Positions 1,334-55,614 of a stretch of 64,000 nt of DNA are shown here, piece after piece. Within the stretch, counting starts at the first letter, position 1; each line of letters opens with the position of its first letter. Source of the DNA: Phyllobates terribilis (lineage: Eukaryota). The stretch spans positions 368,962,001 to 369,026,000 of the forward strand of contig NW_027362769.1 in the NCBI RefSeq assembly GCF_046119375.1. Direction: 5' to 3'. The position numbers and the translations under genes are program-made. The notes beneath the pieces are model-generated. The model made no database searches, had not been told where the DNA came from, and saw only the letters and a program-made list of their open reading frames with translations.

Positions 1334-4300
1334 ATGCCCACAGTCATCGACTACAAGGACGTCCTATCTCACATCATCTCACTAGACAGAGGCACCCTGC
1401 ACCTTTGCAGCTACATTTCTGAGCTGTCCCTGCTGTACACAGAGCTGTCAGTGTATTCCCCAGCTCAGCTAGCTGCTGGCGCTCTACTACTAGCCAGGAT
1501 CCTGCACAGACAAGGTGGGTCCGCTGGTGTGTGTGTATACAGTACAGACCAAAAGTTTGGACACACCTTCTCATTTAAAGATTTTTCTGTATTTTCCTGA
1601 CTATGAAAATTGTACATTCACACTGAAGGCATCAAAACTATGAATTAACACATGTGGAATTATATACTTAACAAAAAAGTGTGAAACAACTGAAAATATG
1701 TCTTATATTCTAGGTTCTTCAAAGTAGCCACCTTTTGCTTTGATGACTGCTTTGCACACTCTTGGCATTCTCTTGATGAGCTTCAAGAGGTAGTCACAGG
1801 AAATGGTTTTCACTTCACAGGTGTGCCCTGTCAGGTTTAATAAGTGGGATTTCTTGCCTTATAAATGGGGTTGGGACCATCAGTTGTGTTGTGCAGAAGT
1901 CTGGTGGATACACAGCTGATAGTCCTACTGAATAGACTGTTATAATTTGTATTATGGAAAGAAAAAAGCAGCTAAGTAAAGAAAAACGAGTGGCCATCAT
2001 TACTTTAAGAAATGAAGGTCAGTCAGTGCGAAAAATTGGGCAAACTTTGAAAGTGTCCCCAAGTGCAGTTGCAAAAACCATCAAGCGCTACAAAGAAACT
2101 GGCTCACATGAGGACCCCCCCCCCCCCCCCCCCAGGAAAGGAAGACCAAGAGTCACCTCTGCTTCTGAGAATAAGTTTATCTGAGTCACCTGCCTCAGAA
2201 ATCGCAGGTTAACAGCAGCTCAGATTAGAGACCAGGTCAATGCCACACAGAGTTCTAGCAGCAGACACATCTCTACAACAACTGTTAAGAGGAGACTTTG
2301 TGCAGCAGGCCTTCATGGTAAAATAGCTGCTAGGAAACCACTGCTAAGGACAGGCAATAAGCAGAAGAGACTTGTTTGGGCTAAAGAACACAAGGAATGG
2401 ACATTAGACCAGTGGAAATCTGTGCTTTGGTCTGAGGAGTCCAAATTTGAGATCTTTGGTTCCAACCACCGTGTCTTTGTGCGACGCAGAAAAGGTGAAC
2501 GGATGGACTCTACATGCCTGGTTCCCACCGTGAAGCATGGAGGAGGAGGTGTGATGGTGTGGGGGTGCTTTGCTGGTGACACTGTTGGGGATTTATTCAA
2601 AATTGAAGGCATACTGAACCAGCATGGCTACCACAGCATCTTGCAGCGGCATGCTATTCCATCCGGTTTGCGTTTAGTTGGACCATCATTTATTTTTCAA
2701 CAGGACAATGACCCCAAACACACCTCCAGGCTGTGTAAGGGCTATTTGACCAAGAAGGAGAGTGATGGGGTGCTACGCCAGATGACCTGGCCTCCACAGT
2801 CACCAGACCTGAACCCAATCGAGATGGTTTGGGGTGAGCTGGACCGCAGAGTGAAGGCAAAAGGGCCAACAAGTGCTAAGCATCTCTGGGAACTCCTTCA
2901 AGATTGTTGGAAGACCATTTCCGGTGACTACCTCTTGAAGCTCATCAAGAGAATGCCAAGAGTGTGCAAAGCAGTCATCAAAGCAAAAGGTGGCTACTTT
3001 GAAGAACCTAGAATATAAAACATATTTTCAGTTGTTTCACACTTTTTTGTTAAGTATATAATTCCACATGTGTTAATTCAGAGTTTTGATGTCTTCAGTG
3101 TGAATGTACAATTTTCATAGTCATGAAAATACAGAAAAATCTTTAAATGAGAAGGTGTGTCCAAACTCCAANNNNNNNNNNNNNNNNNNNNNNNNNNNNN
3201 NNNNNNNNNNNNNNNNNNNNNNNNNNNNNNNNNNNNNNNNNNNNNNNNNNNNNNNNNNNNNNNNNNNNNNNNNNNNNNNNNNNNNNNNNNNNNNNNNNNN
3301 NNNNNNNNNNNNNNNNNNNNNNNNNNNNNNNNNNATCGGGTATTGTAGAATATGTATGCGGCCAACCGGGCGCAATCAGCAGAGCGGTGTTTAAATTTGG
3401 CGCCAAAATTGCTGATTGGTTGCGGCCGCTGGCCGCGACCAATCAGCGAACCGTATTACTGATGACCGGGCAGCGGCGCCGTCCCTCCCTTCACATTTGC
3501 CGACGAGATATCGGCGGCCCAAGCCGCTGATCTCCTGACGGTAGCCGCATGGAGGTCAGCGGCGCCGCCCGTCGGGGTACTTGTGCTGCCAGCGCCGCTC
3601 ATCTCCCGGCTGCATCGTCGCCGCTGACTTCCGTCCGGCAGATGAGCTGCTAACGGCCGCCATCTTTTTCTGAAATCCTGCGTCGCTGATTGGTCCGGCC
3701 GCGGCCAATCAGCGACGTGGAATTTCCTTGACAGAGAGACAGACGGGATAAGACTATTATATTATATTATATTCCAGAAATGTTAAAAATTCTTCCCAAG
3801 CCTTGGGATTACGAACAACTAGTGATCCAGCTCAACAGTACAATTCACTGGCATAAATTTGCACAAATTTATGGTTTAATTTTTTTTCTTCTCTCCCTTC
3901 GTCCTACATATACTTTTGTCAGGCTGAATCTTGCAATACCAAATTTCACCACAGTAAAGTCCATTTAATTTCCATAGACTATAATGCAATAGCGCCCCTC
4001 TCCTCCTCCCCCAAGTGTAATCTCCAACATATAACTTTGTATTTGTCAGGAATATAGGACACCTTTTAAAACCGGTAAAAAAACATGTATAAAACACATG
4101 ATCAAATTAAAAAAAACAAAAAAAACAATTTATTTACTAAAAACAACCCAACAATATGATATTGGAGCTATAGATTCAGTAATCATCATCCATATGCTTA
4201 TGTACTATTATGTAATACTGCATTATGTCTGTTTCTGATGATGTCGTCTGTATTTTTCTTCCAGCACTTCCGTGGCCCGCGCAGTTGGCAGAGTGCACGG

Positions 4301-12179: not shown

Positions 12180-12340
12180 CATTTTTCACTCCTTCACCTT
12201 CAAAACGGCATGAAATACTGTGACTATCTGAGCGACTGACAAGGGCCAAATTGTAATGGGTAGATGAAAGGTCAGAGCATCTCCAAACAGCAGATATTGT
12301 GGGGTGTTCCCGGTACACGGCAGGTCACGTGGGGTGTTCC

Positions 12341-15300
12341 TGTGGCGCCCCTGAGGGTTCAGTCGCCACAGAGGTACTGCATCTCACCCAGAGGTGTAGT
12401 ATCCCACTCTCAGGTAAGAAGTACTGCCCGGGACCCAAACACCTGCACCCAACACTACACTACCCAACACTGCTGAGCCCTGACCCTGGCTGGAGTAGGG
12501 GGAACCATGTAGTGGGTGTGGGTGAAGGAAGAAGGTCAGGGGAGCACTTGAGAAGGAGGATATAAAAAGGGAAGCCATCTTGGGTGTGAGTGGAGTTCAG
12601 ATCAGTCTCAGAGGGGGATAGTGAAGGGAGCAGGAGCTCTGCTCGGGAGGAGCGGGCCTGAGTGAGAGAGGCCCAGGACATGAGATTGAAGAGAGGAAGG
12701 CTCCAGAAGGAAAGAGTGGATCCTAGGGGTACGGGAAGTGCTGGAGGCCACCCGTATGCCCTAATCTACCAGGAGTGGAAGGATCAAGCCGCAGAGGGGA
12801 CCGGCCCCTAACTAATGAGAATTGCATATTCAACTAGAAACCGGAGGCTTCTGCACTTTCAGGGTGTAGTTGCCACAGCCACAATTAATCGCCAAAAAGG
12901 TAGCCGCACAGGATCCAGGGAACTCCAGGTTGCCCGCCAAGATCTTAGGTTACCGGCTTGGGACACTGATTGTGAGGCGCAGGGCAGGAGGGTGAGAGTC
13001 AGCGCAGGAAGACTACTGAGAAAGGCACACAGAACAGGGTCCCGTCAAGTACTTCTGACATACCTGAGGGATTGCTGTACCCCTACCTCGGTGAACGCAG
13101 GACGACGTGGGTGGTGATAATTTGTCTGTTGTAACCAGGAGCAACGTGATAACCGTGAGTAAACCCTGAAGACTGCACCCCACTGTCTCTGTGAGTTATT
13201 GCTGCGCCATCATCCCCTGCACCACATTGCACCACAACATCTACCTCATCTATAATCACCACAGCAACGCCCTGGAGCAAAGCTCTACGTGTGGAGAGCT
13301 GAACCAACTCTGCTGCATCACCAACAGCTCCAGAGGACCTGCTCCGCAGCGGCGGCTCCATATAGCCACATACCGAAGGTGGCGTCACGAACATTAAACA
13401 TGAAAACTATAATCCTTTTATTGACTGCCCTGGGTCACGGACCGGGTCACCGCCACTGTGACATCTCCCCTAGCAACGACCGGCCCGGCTACCGAGTACC
13501 CCACTGCCCAGGGGGTGCGTCAAACCTCATGGGTTTTCCCCGGGAGACCCGTGAGGAGACTGCACGCCGAGAGGAGCATTGCCGGCAGGAGCTCCTGCAG
13601 CTAGAAAAGGAGCTGCGCATCAGGCGGGTGCGCTGGGAGAGAATGGAGGCCAGTAACATGGAGGAGAAGGCCCGGGCCCGCAAGGCAAAGCCGGCCACGC
13701 CCGAGCCATGTCCCGAAGGAGTGGTGGTCAAGTTCGACTTAGATGGAGGATGGGGGTTCATCCGCGAGTTACAGCTTGGCACCGACCTTTTTGTCAGCCA
13801 GCGGGACGTGGAGTCCCATCTCCAACAGGGACATCCAGAGCGGGATCTGTACCCCGATGACCGGGTCACCTGTACCCGCCATAGAGGAGAGCGGGGCTGG
13901 TATGCGCTGACTGTATACAGAGTAGTGGAGGAGGACATGCCCCCAGCAGGTTGAGGCTGATGACCCGGCTGGGCCAGCCTACAGCAAACAGGTGTCTCCC
14001 AGGAGGGTGCACAACTATTGAGTAAGTCGTGTGAAGAGACTGTAAATAGTTACCCGGAAGGGTACATCATTGTTGAGTGAACTGAAAAAGTTTGTGTGTG
14101 TTTACCTAGTTACCCGGTAAGGGTATAAGAACTGACAGGCTGAGGACTGTGAGCAGCCAAAAACTTTTAAACTGTATATAGTTTGCACTTATTAAAGTGC
14201 CTCTTATTGGTTTTAGATTAAAAAAGACCACTGAACAAAAACCTGTTTGGCGTGGCCGAAGACGTGGTCCAACAGCTGGATCACCTATGCCCTGCAGCCA
14301 CGCCCAGGGCCTACGTTGAGGGTTTTCGGACGGGTCCCTCATGTTCATCAGATTGCACCTTGTTCAGTGAAATGGACACCCCGCTATAGATTTCACTGTA
14401 GTCTATTGAAAATGTTTTATGTGTGAGGAAAAATGTTATTTAAAAAGAAGTTCTATATAGTAACCTGTAACGTTTAAGAAATGTGCCTCCCATAAAGGGA
14501 AGAAAAAGTTTTGAATATTCTTCTATGTGAATGCATTCTAAAAATTTGCATGTCTTTAAAATACGTTGTGTTTTTACTTTGTTCCAGCCTGCGGACGTGC
14601 TGTGTTTTACCAGGGAGGTATGTGGCGCCCCTGAGGGTTCAGTCGCCACAGAGGTACTGCATCTCACCCAGAGGTGTAGTATCCCACTTTCAGGTAAAGA
14701 TGGAGTACTGCCCAGGACCCAAACACCTGCACCCAACACTACACTACTCCAGACCGGCAGGAGGGGCAAGATGCACTGCTGCGCTGCTGAGCCCTGACCC
14801 TGGCTGGAGTGGGGGGAACCAAGAGAGGGGGAACCATGTAGTGGGTGTGGGTGGAGGAAGAAGGTCAGGGGAGCTCTTGAGAAGGAGGATATAAAAAGGG
14901 AAGCCATCTTGGGTGTGTGTGGAGTGGAGTTCAGATCAGTCTCCAAAGGAGGACAGTGAAGGGAGCAGGAGCTCTGCTCGAGAGGAGCGGGCCTGGGTGA
15001 GAGAGGCCCAGGAGGTGAGACTGACTGAAGAGAGGAGAGGAGCAGGAAGGAAGGCTCCAAGAAAGAAAGAGTGGATCCTAGGGGTACGGGAAGTGCTGGA
15101 GGCACCAGGAGTGGAAGGATCAAGCCGCAGAGGGGACCGGCCCCTAACTAGTGAGAATTGCATATTCAACTAGAAACCGGAGGCTTCTGCACTTTCAGGG
15201 TGTAGTTGCCACAGCCACAATTAATCGCCAAAAAGGTAGCCGCACAGGATCCAGGGAACTCCAGGTTGCCCGCCAAGATCTTAGGTTACCGGCTTGGGAC

Positions 15301-15875
15301 ACTGATTGTGAGGCGCAGGGCAGGAGGGTGAGAGCCAGCGCAGGAAGACGACTGAGAAAGGCACACAGAACTGGGTCCCATCAAGTACTTCTGACATACC
15401 TGAGGGATTGCTGAACCCCTACCTCGGTGAACGCAGAACGACGTGGGTGGTGATAATTTGGCCGTTGTAACCAGGAGCAATGTGATAACCGTGAGTAAAC
15501 CCTGAAGACTGCACCCCACTGTCTCTGTGAATTATTGCTGTGCCATCATCCCCTGCACCACACTGCACAACAACAATTACTTCACTATTTACCATCACCG
15601 CACCGCCCTGGAGCTTAGCTTTACCTGTGGAGAGCTGAACCAACTCTGCTGCATTACCAACAGCTCCAGAGGACCTGCTCCGCAGCGGTGGCTCCATATA
15701 GCCGCATACCACAGGTGGCGTCATGAACATTAAACATAAAAACTATAATCCTTTTCTTTAAAACCCCCCTTTATTGACTGCCCTGGGTAACGGACCAGGT
15801 CACCGCAACTGTGACATCTCCCCTAGCAACGACCGGCCTGTCTACCGAGTACCCCACGGCCCAGGGAGCACGTCA
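12341..15875 (+). mobile_element. Non-autonomous LTR retroelement (Gypsy-like): 5' LTR 12341-13522, internal region 13523-14620, 3' LTR 14621-15875
   Basis: Two about 1.2-kb direct repeats starting TGTGGCGCCCC and ending CGTCA; 4-bp TSD TTCC (12337-12340, 15876-15879); TATAAAA at 12561 and 14890; AGTAAA at 13158; short purine tract AGGGAGG just before the 3' LTR. No gag, RT or integrase coding seen. Confidence 0.9.
13529..13954 (+). CDS. Retroelement-borne 141-aa protein: N-terminal charged coiled coil plus C-terminal cold-shock domain (about 13718-13924)
   Basis: Open frame starting 7 nt after the 5' LTR. GVVVKFD..GGWGFIR..DLFVSQRDV..LYPDDRVT..GERGWYALTV aligns by eye with YBX1/Lin28/CspA CSDs (RNP1 GYGFI-like, RNP2 DVFVH-like). 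The domain call is strong; expression is unknown. Confidence 0.7.
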   Translation: MGFPRETREETARREEHCRQELLQLEKELRIRRVRWERMEASNMEEKARARKAKPATPEPCPEGVVVKFDLDGGWGFIRELQLGTDLFVSQRDVESHLQQGHPERDLYPDDRVTCTRHRGERGWYALTVYRVVEEDMPPAG

Positions 15876-16771
15876 TTCCCGGCATACAGCAGGTCTTGTG
15901 GGGTGTTCCCGGTATAGGGCAGGTCTTGTGGGGTGTTCCCAGCATACGGGAGGTCTTGTGGGGTGTTCCCGGTATATGGCGGGTCTTGTGGGATGTTCCC
16001 GGTATACGCCGTCTCGCGGGGTGTTCCCTGTATACAGCGGGTCTCGCGGGGTGTTCCCTGTATATGGCAGGTCTTGTGGGGTGTTCCCAGCATACGGGAG
16101 GTCTTGTGGGGTGTTCCCGGCATACGGGAGGTCTTGTGGGGTGTTCCCGGCATACGGTAGGTCTCGCGCGGTGTTCCCTGTATACGGCGGGTCTCGCGGG
16201 GTGTTCCCGGTATACGGCGGGTCTCGCGGGGTGTTCCCTGTATACGGCGGGTCTCGCGGGGTGTTCCCGGTATACGGCAGGTCTCGCGGGGTGTTCCCGG
16301 TATACGGCGGGTCTCGCGGGGTGTTCCCGGTATATGGCGGGTCTCGCGAGGTGTTCCCAGTATACGGCGGGTCTCGTGGGGTGTTCCCGGTAAACGGCAG
16401 GTCTCGCGGGGTGTTCCCGGTATACGGCGGGTCTCGTGGGGTGTTCCCGGCATAAGGCGGGTCTCGCGGGGTGTTCTCGGTATACGGCGGGTCTTGCGGG
16501 GTGTTCCCGGTATACGGCGGGTCTCGCGGGGTGTTCCCTGGTATACGGCGGGTCTCGCGGGGTGTTCCCGGCATACGGCGGGTCTCGCGGGGTGTTCCCG
16601 GCATAAGGCGGGTCTCGCGGGGTGTTCTCGGTATACGGCGAGTCTCGCGGGGTGTTCCCGGTATACGGCGGGTCTCGCGGGGTGTTCCCTTGTATACGGC
16701 GGGTCTCGCGGGGTGTTCCCGGCATACGGCGGGTCTCGCGGGGTGTTCCCGGCATACGGCGGGTCTTGTGG
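15876..16771. repeat. 30-bp GC-rich minisatellite (unit about GGGGTGTTCCCGGTATACGGCGGGTCTCGC), about 30 copies; 1.5 further copies at 12298-12340
   Basis: Direct tandem periodicity; source of the many repetitive ORFs in the track. Confidence 0.97.
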
Positions 16772-23041: not shown

Positions 23042-26000
23042 ATGGCGGTGTTACGGCAGCTGTGGCTTCTTCTATGGAAGAATTACATCTTACAGGTAAG
23101 GGCGTGGTATTAGCAGAGGGGGAGGGGTGTTTGGGATTTGGCAGATATATATGTATAGGACGGCTACCACAGTTAGGGGCTTTTATACTACGGAAACCCG
23201 CAAGGTCATATATGAGATGTACAGACCAACGCCTGCTCCTTTAAGAGTGTATTAAAGGGGTATTTCTATCCCAGAAAATTAGGGTAAATGTAAGTAATCG
23301 GTGGGCTCAGACCCCCATGAGTGCTGTAGTGGGGCCACCATAAAGGTGACCGGGAGTAGAGCTGAACATATGGTGGTCGGACCCCCACCCATTATAACCT
23401 GTAAAGCTTATTGCTTTTGTCTCCTCTCCCCATAGAAACGTCAGGTCCTGGTGACGGTGATCGAGCTGGCGCTGCCCCTACTGTTTTCTGTTATCCTTAT
23501 TGCATTGAGGCATAGGGTGGAGTCGGAGAATCACCCCAATGCTACGACGTACCCCAACGTGGACTTTCTCAGGTTGCCCGGAACTTTTTATATTATGGGA
23601 CCTTGGGAGCTGGCCTACGTCCCCTCCAATAGTCGCGTTGTGCAGGACATTGTGGGAGAAGTGGAGAAGAAGCTGGCTATTGATATCCAAGGTAAGGCAG
23701 CCTACTCTGGTGGTCCCATATATCCCGGGTAAGGCAGCCTATTCTGGTGGTCCCATATATCCCGGGTAAGGCAGCATACTCTGGGGGTCCCATATATCCC
23801 GGGTAAGGCAGCCTACTCTGGGGGTCCCATATATCCCGGGTAAGGCAGCCTACTCTGGGGGTCCCATATATCCCAGGTAAGGCTGCCTACTCTGGGGGTC
23901 CCATATATCTCGGGTAAGGCGGCCTACTCTGGGGGTCCCATATATCCCGGGTAAGGCGGCCTACTCTGGGGGTCCCATATATCCCGGGTAAGGCGGCCTA
24001 CTCTGGGGGTCCCATATATCCCGGGTAAGGCGGCCTACTCTGGGGGTCCCATATATCCCGGGTAAGGCGGCCTACTCTGGGGGTCCCATATATCCCGGGT
24101 AAGGCGGCCTACTCTGGGGGTCCCACATATCCCGGGTAAGGCGGCCTACTCTGGGGGTCCCATATATCCCGGGTAAGGTGGCCTACTCTGGGGGTCCCAC
24201 ACATCCCGGGTAAGGTGGCCTACTCTGGGGGTCCCACACATCCCGGGTAAGGCGGCCTACTCTGGGGGTCCCACACATCCCGGGTAAGGCGGCCTACTCT
24301 GGGGGTCCCACACATCCCGGGTAAGGCGGCCTACTCTGGGGGTCCCACACATCCCGGGTAAGGCGGCCTACTCTGGGGGTCCCACACATCCCGGGTAAGG
24401 CGGCCTACTCCGGTGCTCCCATGTATTTCCTTGCATGACTCTCTCCGTTGTCCTCAGCCCGGGGGTTTCATACAGAAGGAGATTTGGAGAAGTTCATTAG
24501 ACATGACAACCAGTCGGGCAACGTTCTGGCAGCCATCATCTTCGACCATACATTCAATAACAGCTCTGATCCATTACCCCTGCAGGTAATGACTGGGGCT
24601 CTGCTATCAGAAGCCTGGGCTACGTGGCGACATTAGTGCTGCAGGAATAACATCTCTTTCCTGGCATAGGTCCGCTACAAGCTGCGGTTTAAGTACAGCC
24701 CTCGCAACGCTCCCATCAGCGAGCAATCGGGACTTAACCCAAATGTGGATCGCAACTGGCACACCAGATACTTGTACCCGCTCTTCCAGCTTCCGGGGCC
24801 TCGTGAGCGGGGCGACCTTACCGGAGGCACCCCAGGTAATATTGGGCGTCACCCGCTTGTATGCCTGGTTTCCTGCACACATCATTCATTCTTTTTTTCA
24901 CCTTGCAGGATACTACAGAGAGTGCTTTCTGGCAGTGCAGCACCACGTGGACCGGGCGATCATTTACTACCATGCCAACAAAACCGGACAGGCCCTTCTG
25001 GATAACATCGATGTCTCTATCCGACGGTTTCCCTTTCCACCCTACGTCAACGACCTCTTCATCTTGGCGATCCAGAATCAGCTGCCTCTGCTCCTGATGC
25101 TCAGCTTCACCTACACCTCCCTGAGCATTGTGCGCGCTCTGGTCCTGGAGAAGGAGCGGAAGCTGAAGGTCAGGACCGGGTGGTGACGCGGCTCCTTCGA
25201 TCGGTGAACTGCATGAATTATATCCTATTGATTGGCCTACATGTGACATGTCTTACAGGAATACATGCGAGTGATGGGACTGAAGTCCTGGCTTCTCTCT
25301 ACTGCCTGGTTCATCCATTTTTTCATATTACTTTTGGTGTCCATCTTCTTCGTCACTTTACTTCTGTGCGTCCAGGTCAGTAATGCTCCTTCCTTCCAGG
25401 TTCATGCATTTTCGCTGCCATTTTGCATTTCTCCAATACATCTGTTAAAAAAGAATAAAATCTCTTTGCTGTTTTAAGTTTACAGCTCCAATGCAAACCT
25501 ATGTATCCCCATGACTGCAAGCCCTGTGTAGTTGCATCCTGCAGTCATCTGTTACTCTCCTCCATCTGTCTTTTTATTTTATTGTCGTAAAGTCAGGCAA
25601 TAGCATTGGTGAGGGGGAAGGGGCTCGGGTATGACTGTGGGGTCCGACTACAGTGGGTCCGCTTGTGCCCAGTAACCTTGGACGTTTTGCTGTGATCAAT
25701 ACGAAAGGGGATATTCCCACCAGACGTGATCACCTATTGCTAGGATATGCCGTCACTTTTTGATTGGTCCCTCCTGGACCCCCCCATATAAGTGCCACAG
25801 CTCTCACCGAGGACCTGTAATGCAGCCCTGTTCACCTGGACACGAAGTAAAAGGAGGTTTCTGCCCCTTCATTTAGGTGATCAGTGGGTTTAATCTGCAC
25901 AGTGATCAAGTGATTGCATATGGCCACTTCAAGGGCTGACAATGCCTCTTGACCACATTGTGATGCAGATCGAGCACCTCTGCTTTACTTGGCTCCTTGC

Positions 26001-53354: not shown

Positions 53355-53533
53355 GAATGGATTATATATAAGATAGATAATAGATAGATAATAGATAAAT
53401 TGATGGATAGATTATAGATAATATAGATAGATGATAGATAGATAATAGATAAATTGATGGATAGATTATAGATAATATAGATAGATGATAGATAAATAAT
53501 AGATAAATTGATGGATAGATTATAGATAATATA
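53291..53533. repeat. Complex (GATA)n/(TAGA)n microsatellite, continuing 55165-55470 beyond the transposon
   Basis: GATA-based low-complexity sequence with higher-order repeats on both sides of the Tc1 insertion. Confidence 0.95.
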
Positions 53534-55164
53534 CAGTACAGACCAAAAATTTGGACACACCTTCTCATTTAAAGATTTTTCTGTATTTTCATGACTATGA
53601 AAATTGTACATTCACACTGAAGGCATCAAAACTATGAATTAACATATGTGGAATTATATACTTAACAAAAAAGTGTGAAACAACTGATAACATGTCTTAT
53701 ATTCTAGGTTCTTCAAAGTAGCCACCTTTTGCTTTGATGACTGCTTTGCACACTCTTGGCATTCTCTTGATGAGCTTAAAGAGGTAGTCACCGGAAATGG
53801 TTTTCACTTCACAGGTGTGCCCTGTCAGGTTTAATAAGGGGGATTTCTGGCCTTAAAAATGGGGTTGGGACCATCAGTTGTGTTGTGCAGAAGTCAGGTG
53901 GATACACAGCTGATAGTCCTACTGAATAGACTGTTAGAAATTGTATTATGGCAAGAAAAAAGCAGCTAAGTAAAGAAAAACGAGTGGCCACCATTACTTT
54001 AAGAAATGAAGGTCAGTCAGTCCGAAAAATTGGGCAAACTTTGAAAGTGTCCCCAAGTGCAGTTGCAAAAACCATCAAGCGCTACAAAGAAACTGGCTCA
54101 CATGAGGACCGCCCCAGGAAAGGAAGACCAAGAGTCACCTCTGCTTCTGAGGATAAGTTTATCCGAGTCACCAGCCTCAGAAATCGCAGGTTAACAGCAG
54201 CTCAGATTAGAGACCAGGTCAATGCCACACAGAGTTCTAGCAGCAGACACATCTCTACAACAACTGTTAAGAGGAGACTTTGTGCAGAAGGCCTTCATGG
54301 TAAAATAGCTGCTAGGAAACCACTGCTAAGGACAGGCAACAAGCAGAAGAGACTTGTTTGGGCTAAAGAACACAAGGAATGGACATTAGGCCAGTGGAAA
54401 TCTGTGCTTTGGTCTGATGAGTCCAAATTTGAGATCTTTGGTTCCAACCACCGTGTCTTTGTGCGATGCAGAAAAGGTGAACTGATGGACTCTACTTACC
54501 TGGCTTCTACTGTGAAGCATGGAGGAGGAGGTGTGATGGTGTGGGGGTGCTTTGCTGGTGACACTGTTGGGGATTTATTCAAAATTGAAGGCATACTGAA
54601 CCAGCATGGCTACCACAGCATCTAGCAGCGGCATGCTATTCCATCCAGTTTGCGTTTAGTTGGACCATCATTTATTTTTCAACAGGACAATGACCCCAAA
54701 CACACCTCCAGGCTGTGTAAGGGCTATTTGACCAAGAAGGAGAGTGATGGGGTGCTACGCCAGATGACCTGGCCTCCACAGTCACCAGACCTGAACCCAA
54801 TCGAGATGGTTTGGGGTGAGCTGGACCCCAGAGTGAAGGCAAAAGGGCCAACAAGTGCTAAGCATCTCTGGGAACTCCTTCAAGATTGTTGGAAGACCAT
54901 TTCCGGTGACTACCTCTTGAAGCTCATCAAGAGAACGCCAAGAGTGTGCAAAGCAGTCATGAAAGCAAAAGGTGGCTACTTTGAAGAACCTAGAATATAA
55001 GACATATTTTCAGTTGTTTCACACTTTTTTTGTTAAGTATATAATTCCACATGTGTTAATTCATAGTTTTGATGCCTTCAGTGTGAATGTACAATTTTTA
55101 TAGTTATGAAAATACAGAAAAATCTTTAAATGAGAAGGTGTGTCCAAACTTTTGGTCTGTACTG
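53534..55164 (+). mobile_element. Tc1/mariner DNA transposon, DD38E type, full length (1631 bp), copy 2
   Basis: TA TSD (53532-53533, 55165-55166); TIRs 53534-53801 and 54896-55164; transposase 53948-55000 (350 codons) interrupted by one TTG>TAG stop at 54623-54625; WSDES, QQDND and PIEMVW triad intact. Confidence 0.97.
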
Positions 55165-55614
55165 TAGATAGATGATAGATAAATAATAGATAAATTGATG
55201 GATAGATTATAGATAATATAGATAGATAGATAGATAGATAGATACAGGATAGATAAATTGATGGATAGATTATAGATAGATACAGGATAGATAGATGATA
55301 GATAATAGTTAAATTGATGGATAGATTATAGATAATATAGATAGATGATAGATAGATACAGGATAGATAAATTGATGGATAGATTATAGATAGATACAGG
55401 ATAGATAGATAATAGATAGATAAATTGATGGATAGATTATAGATAATATAGATAGATAATATAGATAGATTTTTGCTATAGATATTGGGTGGATTTGGAT
55501 CTATAGATCTCTAGATAAATAATGAAGGTGATATTGGATATTGATGATGGACACAATTGTATCAATGTGCACAGGGAACCTCAGTAATGGAATTCAGTGT
55601 TTTTTGTGTCTTTG

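Follow-up and report, generated by a model that had tools for sequence, protein, structure and literature searches.

Whether a cold-shock domain (CSD) can be the gene of an LTR retrotransposon is the question raised by a short open reading frame (ORF) in the genome of the poison frog Phyllobates terribilis. In this study, we analyzed this ORF within a stretch of 64,000 nucleotides, referred to here as the window. The original prediction, made from the sequence alone, described a 141-aa ORF with a charged helix followed by the motifs GVVVKF, GGWGFI, and DLFVS. All of these were present at 13529-13954 of the forward strand.

The C-terminal half of the ORF had been read as a CSD. The window ORF matched the Pfam CSD model (PF00313) over residues 63-131 with E=2.9e-5 and 24.3 bits, just below the curated cut-off of 27 bits. 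This cut-off was passed by three of seven sister copies (27.6-33.3 bits), and scores of 37.4 and 42.5 bits were obtained for a second family (family B) and a divergent copy (L061), respectively. By score, the family belongs to PF00313 and the decayed window copy falls short of it. The AlphaFold2 model of the window ORF, built from a 21-row alignment, contained one helix (residues 8-52) and five strands with a pLDDT of 78, and a five-stranded OB barrel is predicted for the element CSD. The best PDB matches in Foldseek were the CSDs of YB-1/YBX2 and bacterial Csps, with 45 matches at E<=0.001 and a target TM of up to 0.92 (versus CspA). The Pfam match, the model, and the Foldseek matches all agreed with the CSD assignment. 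A PDB search with the single sequence gave no useful match, profiles being needed, and the leads from an ESM Atlas search were all under 0.9. The N-terminal half had been called a coiled coil. A long charged helix was indeed predicted there, and a coiled coil itself is possible at most, as 54% of the helix residues are charged and 22% hydrophobic.

We then compared the RNP and stacking positions among natural segments. W75 of RNP1 was kept in 57/59 segments, F77 in 58/59, and F88 of RNP2 in 58/59. The beta-1 Trp and the RNP2 His are stacking residues in Csp and YBX proteins. In the element, the beta-1 Trp position was K in 55/59 segments and the RNP2 His position was N or T in 54/59; the RNP2 His was retained in the divergent L061 type. 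With two of the canonical stacking residues exchanged, the domain may have low affinity or a target other than RNA.

The ORF lay between two LTRs. The features of the element, all on the forward strand, were as follows.

12337-12340, plus strand: left target-site duplication (TSD) TTCC, inside a 30-bp satellite unit; the identical four letters follow the 3' LTR
12341-13522, plus strand: 5' LTR of 1182 nt, TG...CA, with 95.4% identity to the 3' LTR in the aligned part
13380-13392, plus strand: copy resembling the primer-binding site (PBS) within the LTR, some 140-160 nt ahead of where the LTR truly ends; helper LTRs have it likewise
13522-13523, plus strand: deletion junction, where the true PBS, the leader, and about 310 ORF codons are gone; alignments to the sisters start again at element position 1184
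13529-13954, plus strand: 141-aa remnant of the single ORF of the element
13550-13684, plus strand: predicted long charged helix, residues 8-52; nonsynonymous/synonymous (N/S) counts of 18/40 for shared and 57/20 for private variants
13715-13921, plus strand: CSD, residues 63-131, with RNP1 GWGFI, RNP2 F88, and a loop of Y-box length
13955-14608, plus strand: 3' UTR, w about 1
14609-14620, plus strand: polypurine tract (PPT) before the 3' LTR; same position and same pattern in sisters and helpers
14621-15875, plus strand: 3' LTR of 1255 nt
15876-15879, plus strand: right TSD TTCC, opening the remaining 30-bp satellite array at 15876-16766

As predicted, the CSD ORF is carried by an LTR element: it is multi-copy and sits between two LTRs with a TTCC duplication. 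The two LTRs were identical at 1108 of 1162 aligned bases, with 54 mismatches. At a rate of 2.5e-9, taken from the available part of a preprint (bioRxiv 10.1101/2023.11.06.565769), a rough age of about 9 million years is obtained for the insertion. The junction of LTR end and ORF tail had one match in a genome-wide pattern search, which was the window itself. The window ORF ended 22 codons before the sister ORFs, and the sister tail was readable in another frame. The window copy is a dead fragment without its primer site and about 310 codons. It cannot be copied again, because the PBS is lost.

An inner CCACA-GG-PBS motif was considered as the LTR end and was rejected, since the target duplications place the end about 150 nt further. 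About 150 nt before the true end, both satellite and helper LTRs (window 13380-13392; L173-L177, L260) contained a second, internal LTR end with PBS, old in appearance and always of the family's own primer type. It could be a decoy or a second tRNA-binding site.

The ORF had been taken for a complete 141-aa accessory gene. However, it is the C-terminal third of a single ORF of about 450 aa, as the frames of the sister copies (family A) run about 310 codons further upstream. In fuller family-A copies, the ORF started just behind the PBS. LTR sequence was present on at least one side in 20/20 of these copies and on both sides in 16/20, and no gag or pol similarity was found in their internal regions (0/20). 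When the 10.6-Gb P. terribilis assembly was searched with the ORF, the best 150 matches were 71-100% identical, and 48 of the 150 contained stops by hand count. First-look genome candidates (38,785 and 33,380) are not copy numbers. An exact CSD DNA motif occurred at 562 sites genome-wide, against 0 for a control, and this number is a lower bound on family copies. The genome holds hundreds of family copies, contrary to the counter-case, raised with the original prediction, of a single-copy host pseudogene fragment. Contigs of three presumed-RNA runs from one study, which may hold DNA, covered 29/30 bins, mostly at less than 95% likeness, and were given no weight as a sign of expression.

The PBS of family A was the complement of a tRNA-Ser(CGA) gene end, called by ARAGORN at 1/4 loci. 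Duplications of 4 bp were found at the window copy, L032, L036, L039, L046, and L048, at six copies of family B, and at one copy of a third family, C (L249). These results show an element consisting of LTR, tRNA primer site, one ORF, 3' UTR, purine tract, LTR, and 4-bp duplication. The cis signals are of the Ty3/Gypsy type (TG...CA LTRs, tRNA PBS, PPT, and short TSD), with the PBS found in sisters and deleted in the window copy.

In the model of the full protein, a disordered N-terminus is followed by helices at 106-163 and a Pro-rich linker, then by another helix at 300-345 and the CSD at 352-422, and the chain ends in a short tail. Acidic/basic low-complexity regions lie on both sides of the CSD. 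No capsid fold was found in the predicted structure, and no homology to helper Gag was detected (hhalign probability 0.2%). Since the ORF has neither Gag homology nor a capsid fold, the protein has no evident route into a particle. Equivalence of its first helix to the post-capsid helix of helper Gag was also considered and was rejected (hhalign 0.2%). Complex prediction for helper Gag and the first helix gave 0.16 against a mark of 0.34, which speaks neither for nor against contact.

A Pfam search of the genome identified family B, with elements of about 5 kb and a 606-aa ORF beginning at a conserved Met. The LTRs of family B were 99.5-100% identical in 10/10 fetched copies, gag and pol were found in the internal region of none of the ten, and the PBS-PPT distance was 2.50-2.53 kb. 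Its primer, which we take to be tRNA-Ser, was called by ARAGORN at 1/4 loci, as tRNA-Ala. Family C used the primer of family B and had a different LTR; its 592-aa ORF was rich in Arg, and its CSD had diverged much further. Related CSD ORFs are thus carried by no fewer than three LTR families without pol (A, B, and C).

Further derivatives were found around these families. A 3.2-kb element (L264) had LTRs of about 490 nt and a diverged CSD ORF. Three local copies of the divergent ORF that scored 42.5 bits (L061, L246, and L247) were clustered at G000:C4:791.48-791.52 Mb; no LTR pair or PBS was recognized at this cluster, which is possibly a domesticated or ancestral-type copy. Two short PBS-bearing derivatives (L273, L274) contained neither gag nor CSD. 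Because of these two elements, and because the gag/CSD chimeras described below retain only part of the CSD, the CSD ORF is dispensable for some relatives. One and the same fusion was found at L060, L073, and L075 (L265-L267): behind an LTR, an unrelated short sequence was joined, with its own Met, to the beginning of the CSD. This is another derivative subfamily, which holds the CSD part only. A single family-C insertion, whose frame ends early, was multiplied by segmental duplication together with an adjoining gag-bearing element (L241-L245, G000:C3:796-828 Mb). Tandem LTR-internal-LTR-internal arrays occurred in families A, B, and C (L042, L190, L248, L250, L253).

We next examined selection on the ORF. 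Variants were classed against the commonest codon of each column, and a shared variant was one found in at least three copies in family A and at least two in families B and C. In family A (63 unique segments), the N/S counts were 235/282 for shared variants (w=0.28) and 541/192 for private variants (w=0.96), with p=3e-24. The other two frames gave w of 1.17 and 1.33, and the 3' UTR 0.95. For shared and private variants, w was 0.21 and 0.44 in family B (19 segments), and 0.29 and 0.58 in family C (23 segments); the other frames of B and C gave 1.2-1.6. The range for 3' UTRs was 0.95-1.36. In 40-codon windows of family A, w was lowest at codons 281-440 (0.11-0.23) and relaxed at codons 41-80 (0.60) and 161-200 (0.87). 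For the CSD alone, in 31 stop-free family-A segments, shared N/S was 14/56 and private N/S was 61/24 (p=1e-10). A comparison of dN/dS across copies had been proposed with the original prediction; judged from these sequence variants, the ORF was under purifying selection during amplification, with w of 0.21-0.29 for shared variants in three families. As shared variants were constrained and private variants were near neutral in family A, the protein mattered during lineage replication and decays after insertion. Copies were chosen by similarity, which can lower N counts; the private variants in family A, being near neutral, suggest that this bias is small. Pairwise Nei-Gojobori values between families were saturated at synonymous sites and were not relied on.

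According to the available text of one report (PMC7070016), purifying selection on TE proteins within a genome is read as cis-preference, and trans-acting transposases evolve neutrally. The same text notes that LTR elements may show an equal signal from one-copy-per-cell expression. We therefore considered a trans action of the CSD protein, directed at the cell or the helper, by de-repression, silencing suppression, or cell survival, with the benefit kept private by the expression of one or a few copies per germ cell. This is the route proposed there for LTR elements, and non-coding and part-CSD derivatives were amplified too. However, single-copy expression is less easy with at least 562 exact motif sites and the very young, near-identical copies of family B, and a fold that binds single-stranded nucleic acid fits a direct role on RNA. 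We consider action in trans quite unlikely.

Purifying selection is also expected if the protein binds the RNA of its own element. Since the element needs a helper for capsid and enzymes, binding of its own message is the simplest private benefit, and we regard such binding as likely, whether it serves packaging or the survival and storage of the RNA. In the first case, the window ORF would be what is left of the only gene in an LTR family that lacks gag and pol and is copied by helpers, and the CSD protein of this family would bind its own RNA and aid packaging and reverse transcription in helper particles. We favor this reading tentatively; the exchanged Trp and His residues, the spread of derivatives that lack the ORF, and the absence of an evident route into the particle speak against it. 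The CSD element would be transcribed and translated, and the new protein would bind, through its CSD, the message from which it was made. The pattern of selection suggests a preference for own RNA. The bound RNA would then be packaged and reverse-transcribed more often in helper particles; the step affected may be packaging or competition with helper RNA, possibly through the helices or the low-complexity linker.

The origin of the domain bears on the second case. In searches with a profile of 14 diverse family members, YBX1/2 scored 54-55 bits, bacterial Csp up to 39.7, CARHSP1 25.7, CSDE1 23.2, and LIN28 up to 19 bits. LIN28 consists of a CSD followed by CCHC knuckles. No CCHC knuckle was detected in the CSD ORFs by Pfam scans, and with the low LIN28 scores the suggested likeness to Lin28 did not hold. 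Like YBX1 and YBX2 (FRGY2), the element has the CSD fold, the RNP1/RNP2 aromatics, and a long beta3-beta4 loop. It differs from them in its identity of only 25-27% to YBX CSDs, in the replaced Trp and His positions, and in the place of the CSD near the C-terminus behind two helices. The Y-box CSD is nearly invariant among its members, and at 25-27% identity the element CSD lies outside this near-invariance. In a tree of 64 rows and 84 columns, element CSDs were on one side of a branch supported 95/94, together with one long-branch outsider. Y-type rows grouped with bacterial-type rows, and element CSDs were not nested among Y-type or CSDE1 rows; the tree used the best 45 of 80 database CSDs and few columns, and its bootstrap was not settled. 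The predicted YBX likeness was borne out in the long loop and in the best profile scores; the tree, which does not nest the domains together, does not show descent from Y-box proteins. A Y-box origin is favored by profile scores (by about 15 bits) and not by the tree.

In the second case, the protein would mask its own RNA as oocyte Y-box proteins do, stabilizing it, storing it, or shielding it from piRNA or decay until helper particles are available, without touching Gag. The selection signal in families A, B, and C would be identical, YBX1/YBX2 gave the best profile scores, and acidic/basic low-complexity regions surround the CSD. An excess of Gypsy transcripts in the ova of poison frogs relative to Xenopus was reported in the accessible part of a previous study (PMC6278860). 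The basic/acidic tail of Y-box proteins, however, was not conserved in the element ORF, and the tree does not group the domain with Y-box CSDs. Masking alone seems somewhat unlikely to us.

An intronless, partly duplicated retrocopy, which we take from its sequence to be CSDE1/UNR, was found at G000:C1:734.44 Mb (L051-L056). The CSD ORF itself could be an ordinary host retrocopy trapped between LTRs and carried without function. In animals, host mRNA can be captured through LTRs, as stated in the available text of PMC5131818, and stops were present in 48/150 best copies. Frame-specific purifying selection in three families contradicts this explanation. The identity to YBX CSDs is only 25-27%, whereas the true CSDE1 retrocopy of this genome can still be recognized with ease. 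We consider a trapped retrocopy scarcely tenable.

One gag-pol element that was scanned (L175) encoded Gag (PNMA/Retrotrans_gag) with a CCHC knuckle and PR-RT-RH-IN. Gag-pol elements and CSD families had a common LTR end, inner PBS-like copy, primer site, leader, and purine tract; a common LTR end, PBS, leader, and PPT joined L173-L177 with family B. Over its final ~320 nt, the window LTR matched the autonomous L260 at 81%, and a block of about 150 nt in the 3' UTR (element 1886-2041) was 69% like the 3' UTR of L175. A CSD was found in 0/7 of these gag-pol elements; the search for a CSD in autonomous elements covered one Gypsy clade at full length, plus other families. The pattern of LTR end plus family-A PBS had 1,757 exact sites genome-wide. 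Among the first 30 by position, 13 led to gag, 12 to a CSD-family ORF, three to chimeras with a gag start and a CSD tail, and two to neither. In the chimeras (L257:3679-4011, L258:3816-4181, and L259:3933-4223), a gag start ran in frame into the CSD, of which the second half or the tail was present. L257 and L258 had one common junction, and therefore a chimeric subfamily was amplified. We infer that the chimeras are the expected trace of template switching between co-packaged RNAs. Helpers with an identical PBS gave 71,341 first-look candidates, the best 150 at 95-100% identity, and are abundant and young. These results suggest that the CSD families are likely copied by autonomous Ty3/Gypsy helpers.

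Since primer and termini are common to both, satellite and helper must compete. This competition would also suit a protein that is a weapon against the helper, binding helper RNA or Gag and diverting particles to the satellite, possibly as a host-tolerated restriction factor; its two conserved helices could act as interaction sites. The abundance and youth of helpers with an identical PBS argue against such an effect, and we regard it as very unlikely. Taken more broadly, the loading of own RNA into helper particles may point to an old, still-active class of protein-coding satellites in poison frogs, which dropped gag and pol and captured a Y-box-type CSD as a private RNA-loading factor that out-competes helper RNA. 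This would be a hyperparasite gene under element-level selection across several unrelated LTR families, a possible but more doubtful proposal than the loading role by itself.

Non-autonomous LTR elements are usually non-coding or gag-only, and the internal region of TRIM and LARD elements is non-coding. In contrast to TRIM and LARD, the frog elements hold an ORF of 450-600 aa under purifying selection. Hepatitis delta virus, with its antigen, and defective oncogene-transducing retroviruses are helper-dependent satellites with one protein of their own; they resemble the frog elements as one-gene parasites of a parasite, by analogy only and with no homology claimed. LINE-1 ORF1p is a cis-acting protein with a helix and an RNA-binding part. 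The frog ORF likewise joins a helical segment to a putative RNA-binding module, again by analogy only. Plant TR-GAG elements, in the available text of PMC4350172, are also short LTR elements with PBS and PPT, one ORF, no pol, and dependence on a helper, at less than 4 kb compared with about 4-5 kb here. Their ORF is Gag, whereas the frog ORF has no Gag similarity and ends in a CSD. Xenopus 1a11, xretpos(L), and lambda-olt 2-1 are pol-less frog LTR elements expressed in embryos, with an ORF in 1a11 and xretpos(L), as far as described in the accessible part of PMC4585706. The 1a11 protein is described there as Gag-like and no CSD appears in the descriptions of the Xenopus elements. These elements are assumed there to be unable to transpose, whereas family B is very young. 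Captured non-core domains are also kept by other retroelements, such as the esterase/DEDDy exonuclease of rotifer ORF3 (available text of PMC5408684) and the chromodomain or helicase accessories of autonomous LTR elements (available text of PMC6338049). In the portions of both papers at hand, the accessory stands beside gag-pol, whereas the frog CSD ORF is the only gene and is absent from 7/7 gag-pol elements.

No published description of a CSD-bearing LTR element was found in the accessible literature, with Repbase Reports and most subscription journals outside the search. The term 'cold shock' was absent from the available main text of four frog genome and TE papers (PMC6278860, bioRxiv 10.1101/2023.11.06.565769, PMC12822217, and PMC12208295). 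The frog families are apparently an undescribed group of protein-coding, non-autonomous LTR elements that is still amplifying. A selected, putatively RNA-binding gene of host type implies that a parasite of retrotransposons can gain from its own protein. It also bears on the cis-preference of LTR elements, described as not known in the available text of PMC7070016. A natural test is provided by this one genome, which contains intact and broken young copies alongside non-coding derivatives and helpers. These elements may explain part of the unclassified repeats in giant poison-frog genomes; 62.6% of reads were unclassified according to the accessible part of PMC12208295.

Relatives of the ORF were also observed among public proteins. 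A profile search of 1.84 billion proteins gave five strong single-domain matches with the same motif among the best 150, which were crowded by multi-CSD proteins. The five came from P. terribilis, Ranitomeya variabilis, R. imitator, and Anomaloglossus baeobatrachus (two), were named uncharacterized or CSD-containing, and were seen as proteins alone. Those from Ranitomeya and Anomaloglossus have the architecture of the element ORF. In word-based protein searches, the matches were poison-frog gene models only. In some gene models (P0001, P0002, P0003, P0004, and P0161), pieces of the ORF are joined to sequences of R3HCC1, Harbinger, a tyrosine recombinase, and astacin, the last of these in two models from two species. 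The fused models are probably annotation artefacts, and exonization is possible.

Two further features were observed in the window. Two Tc1-like DNA transposons, with long inverted ends and transposase Pfam matches, were present at about 1536-3167 and about 53530-55169 and were 98% alike over the matched stretches. An exon-like stretch at 24908-25168 of the plus strand matched ABCA3 residues 226-312 with E=1e-28, and the element may be located inside an ABCA3-like gene of this strand or a short way upstream of it.
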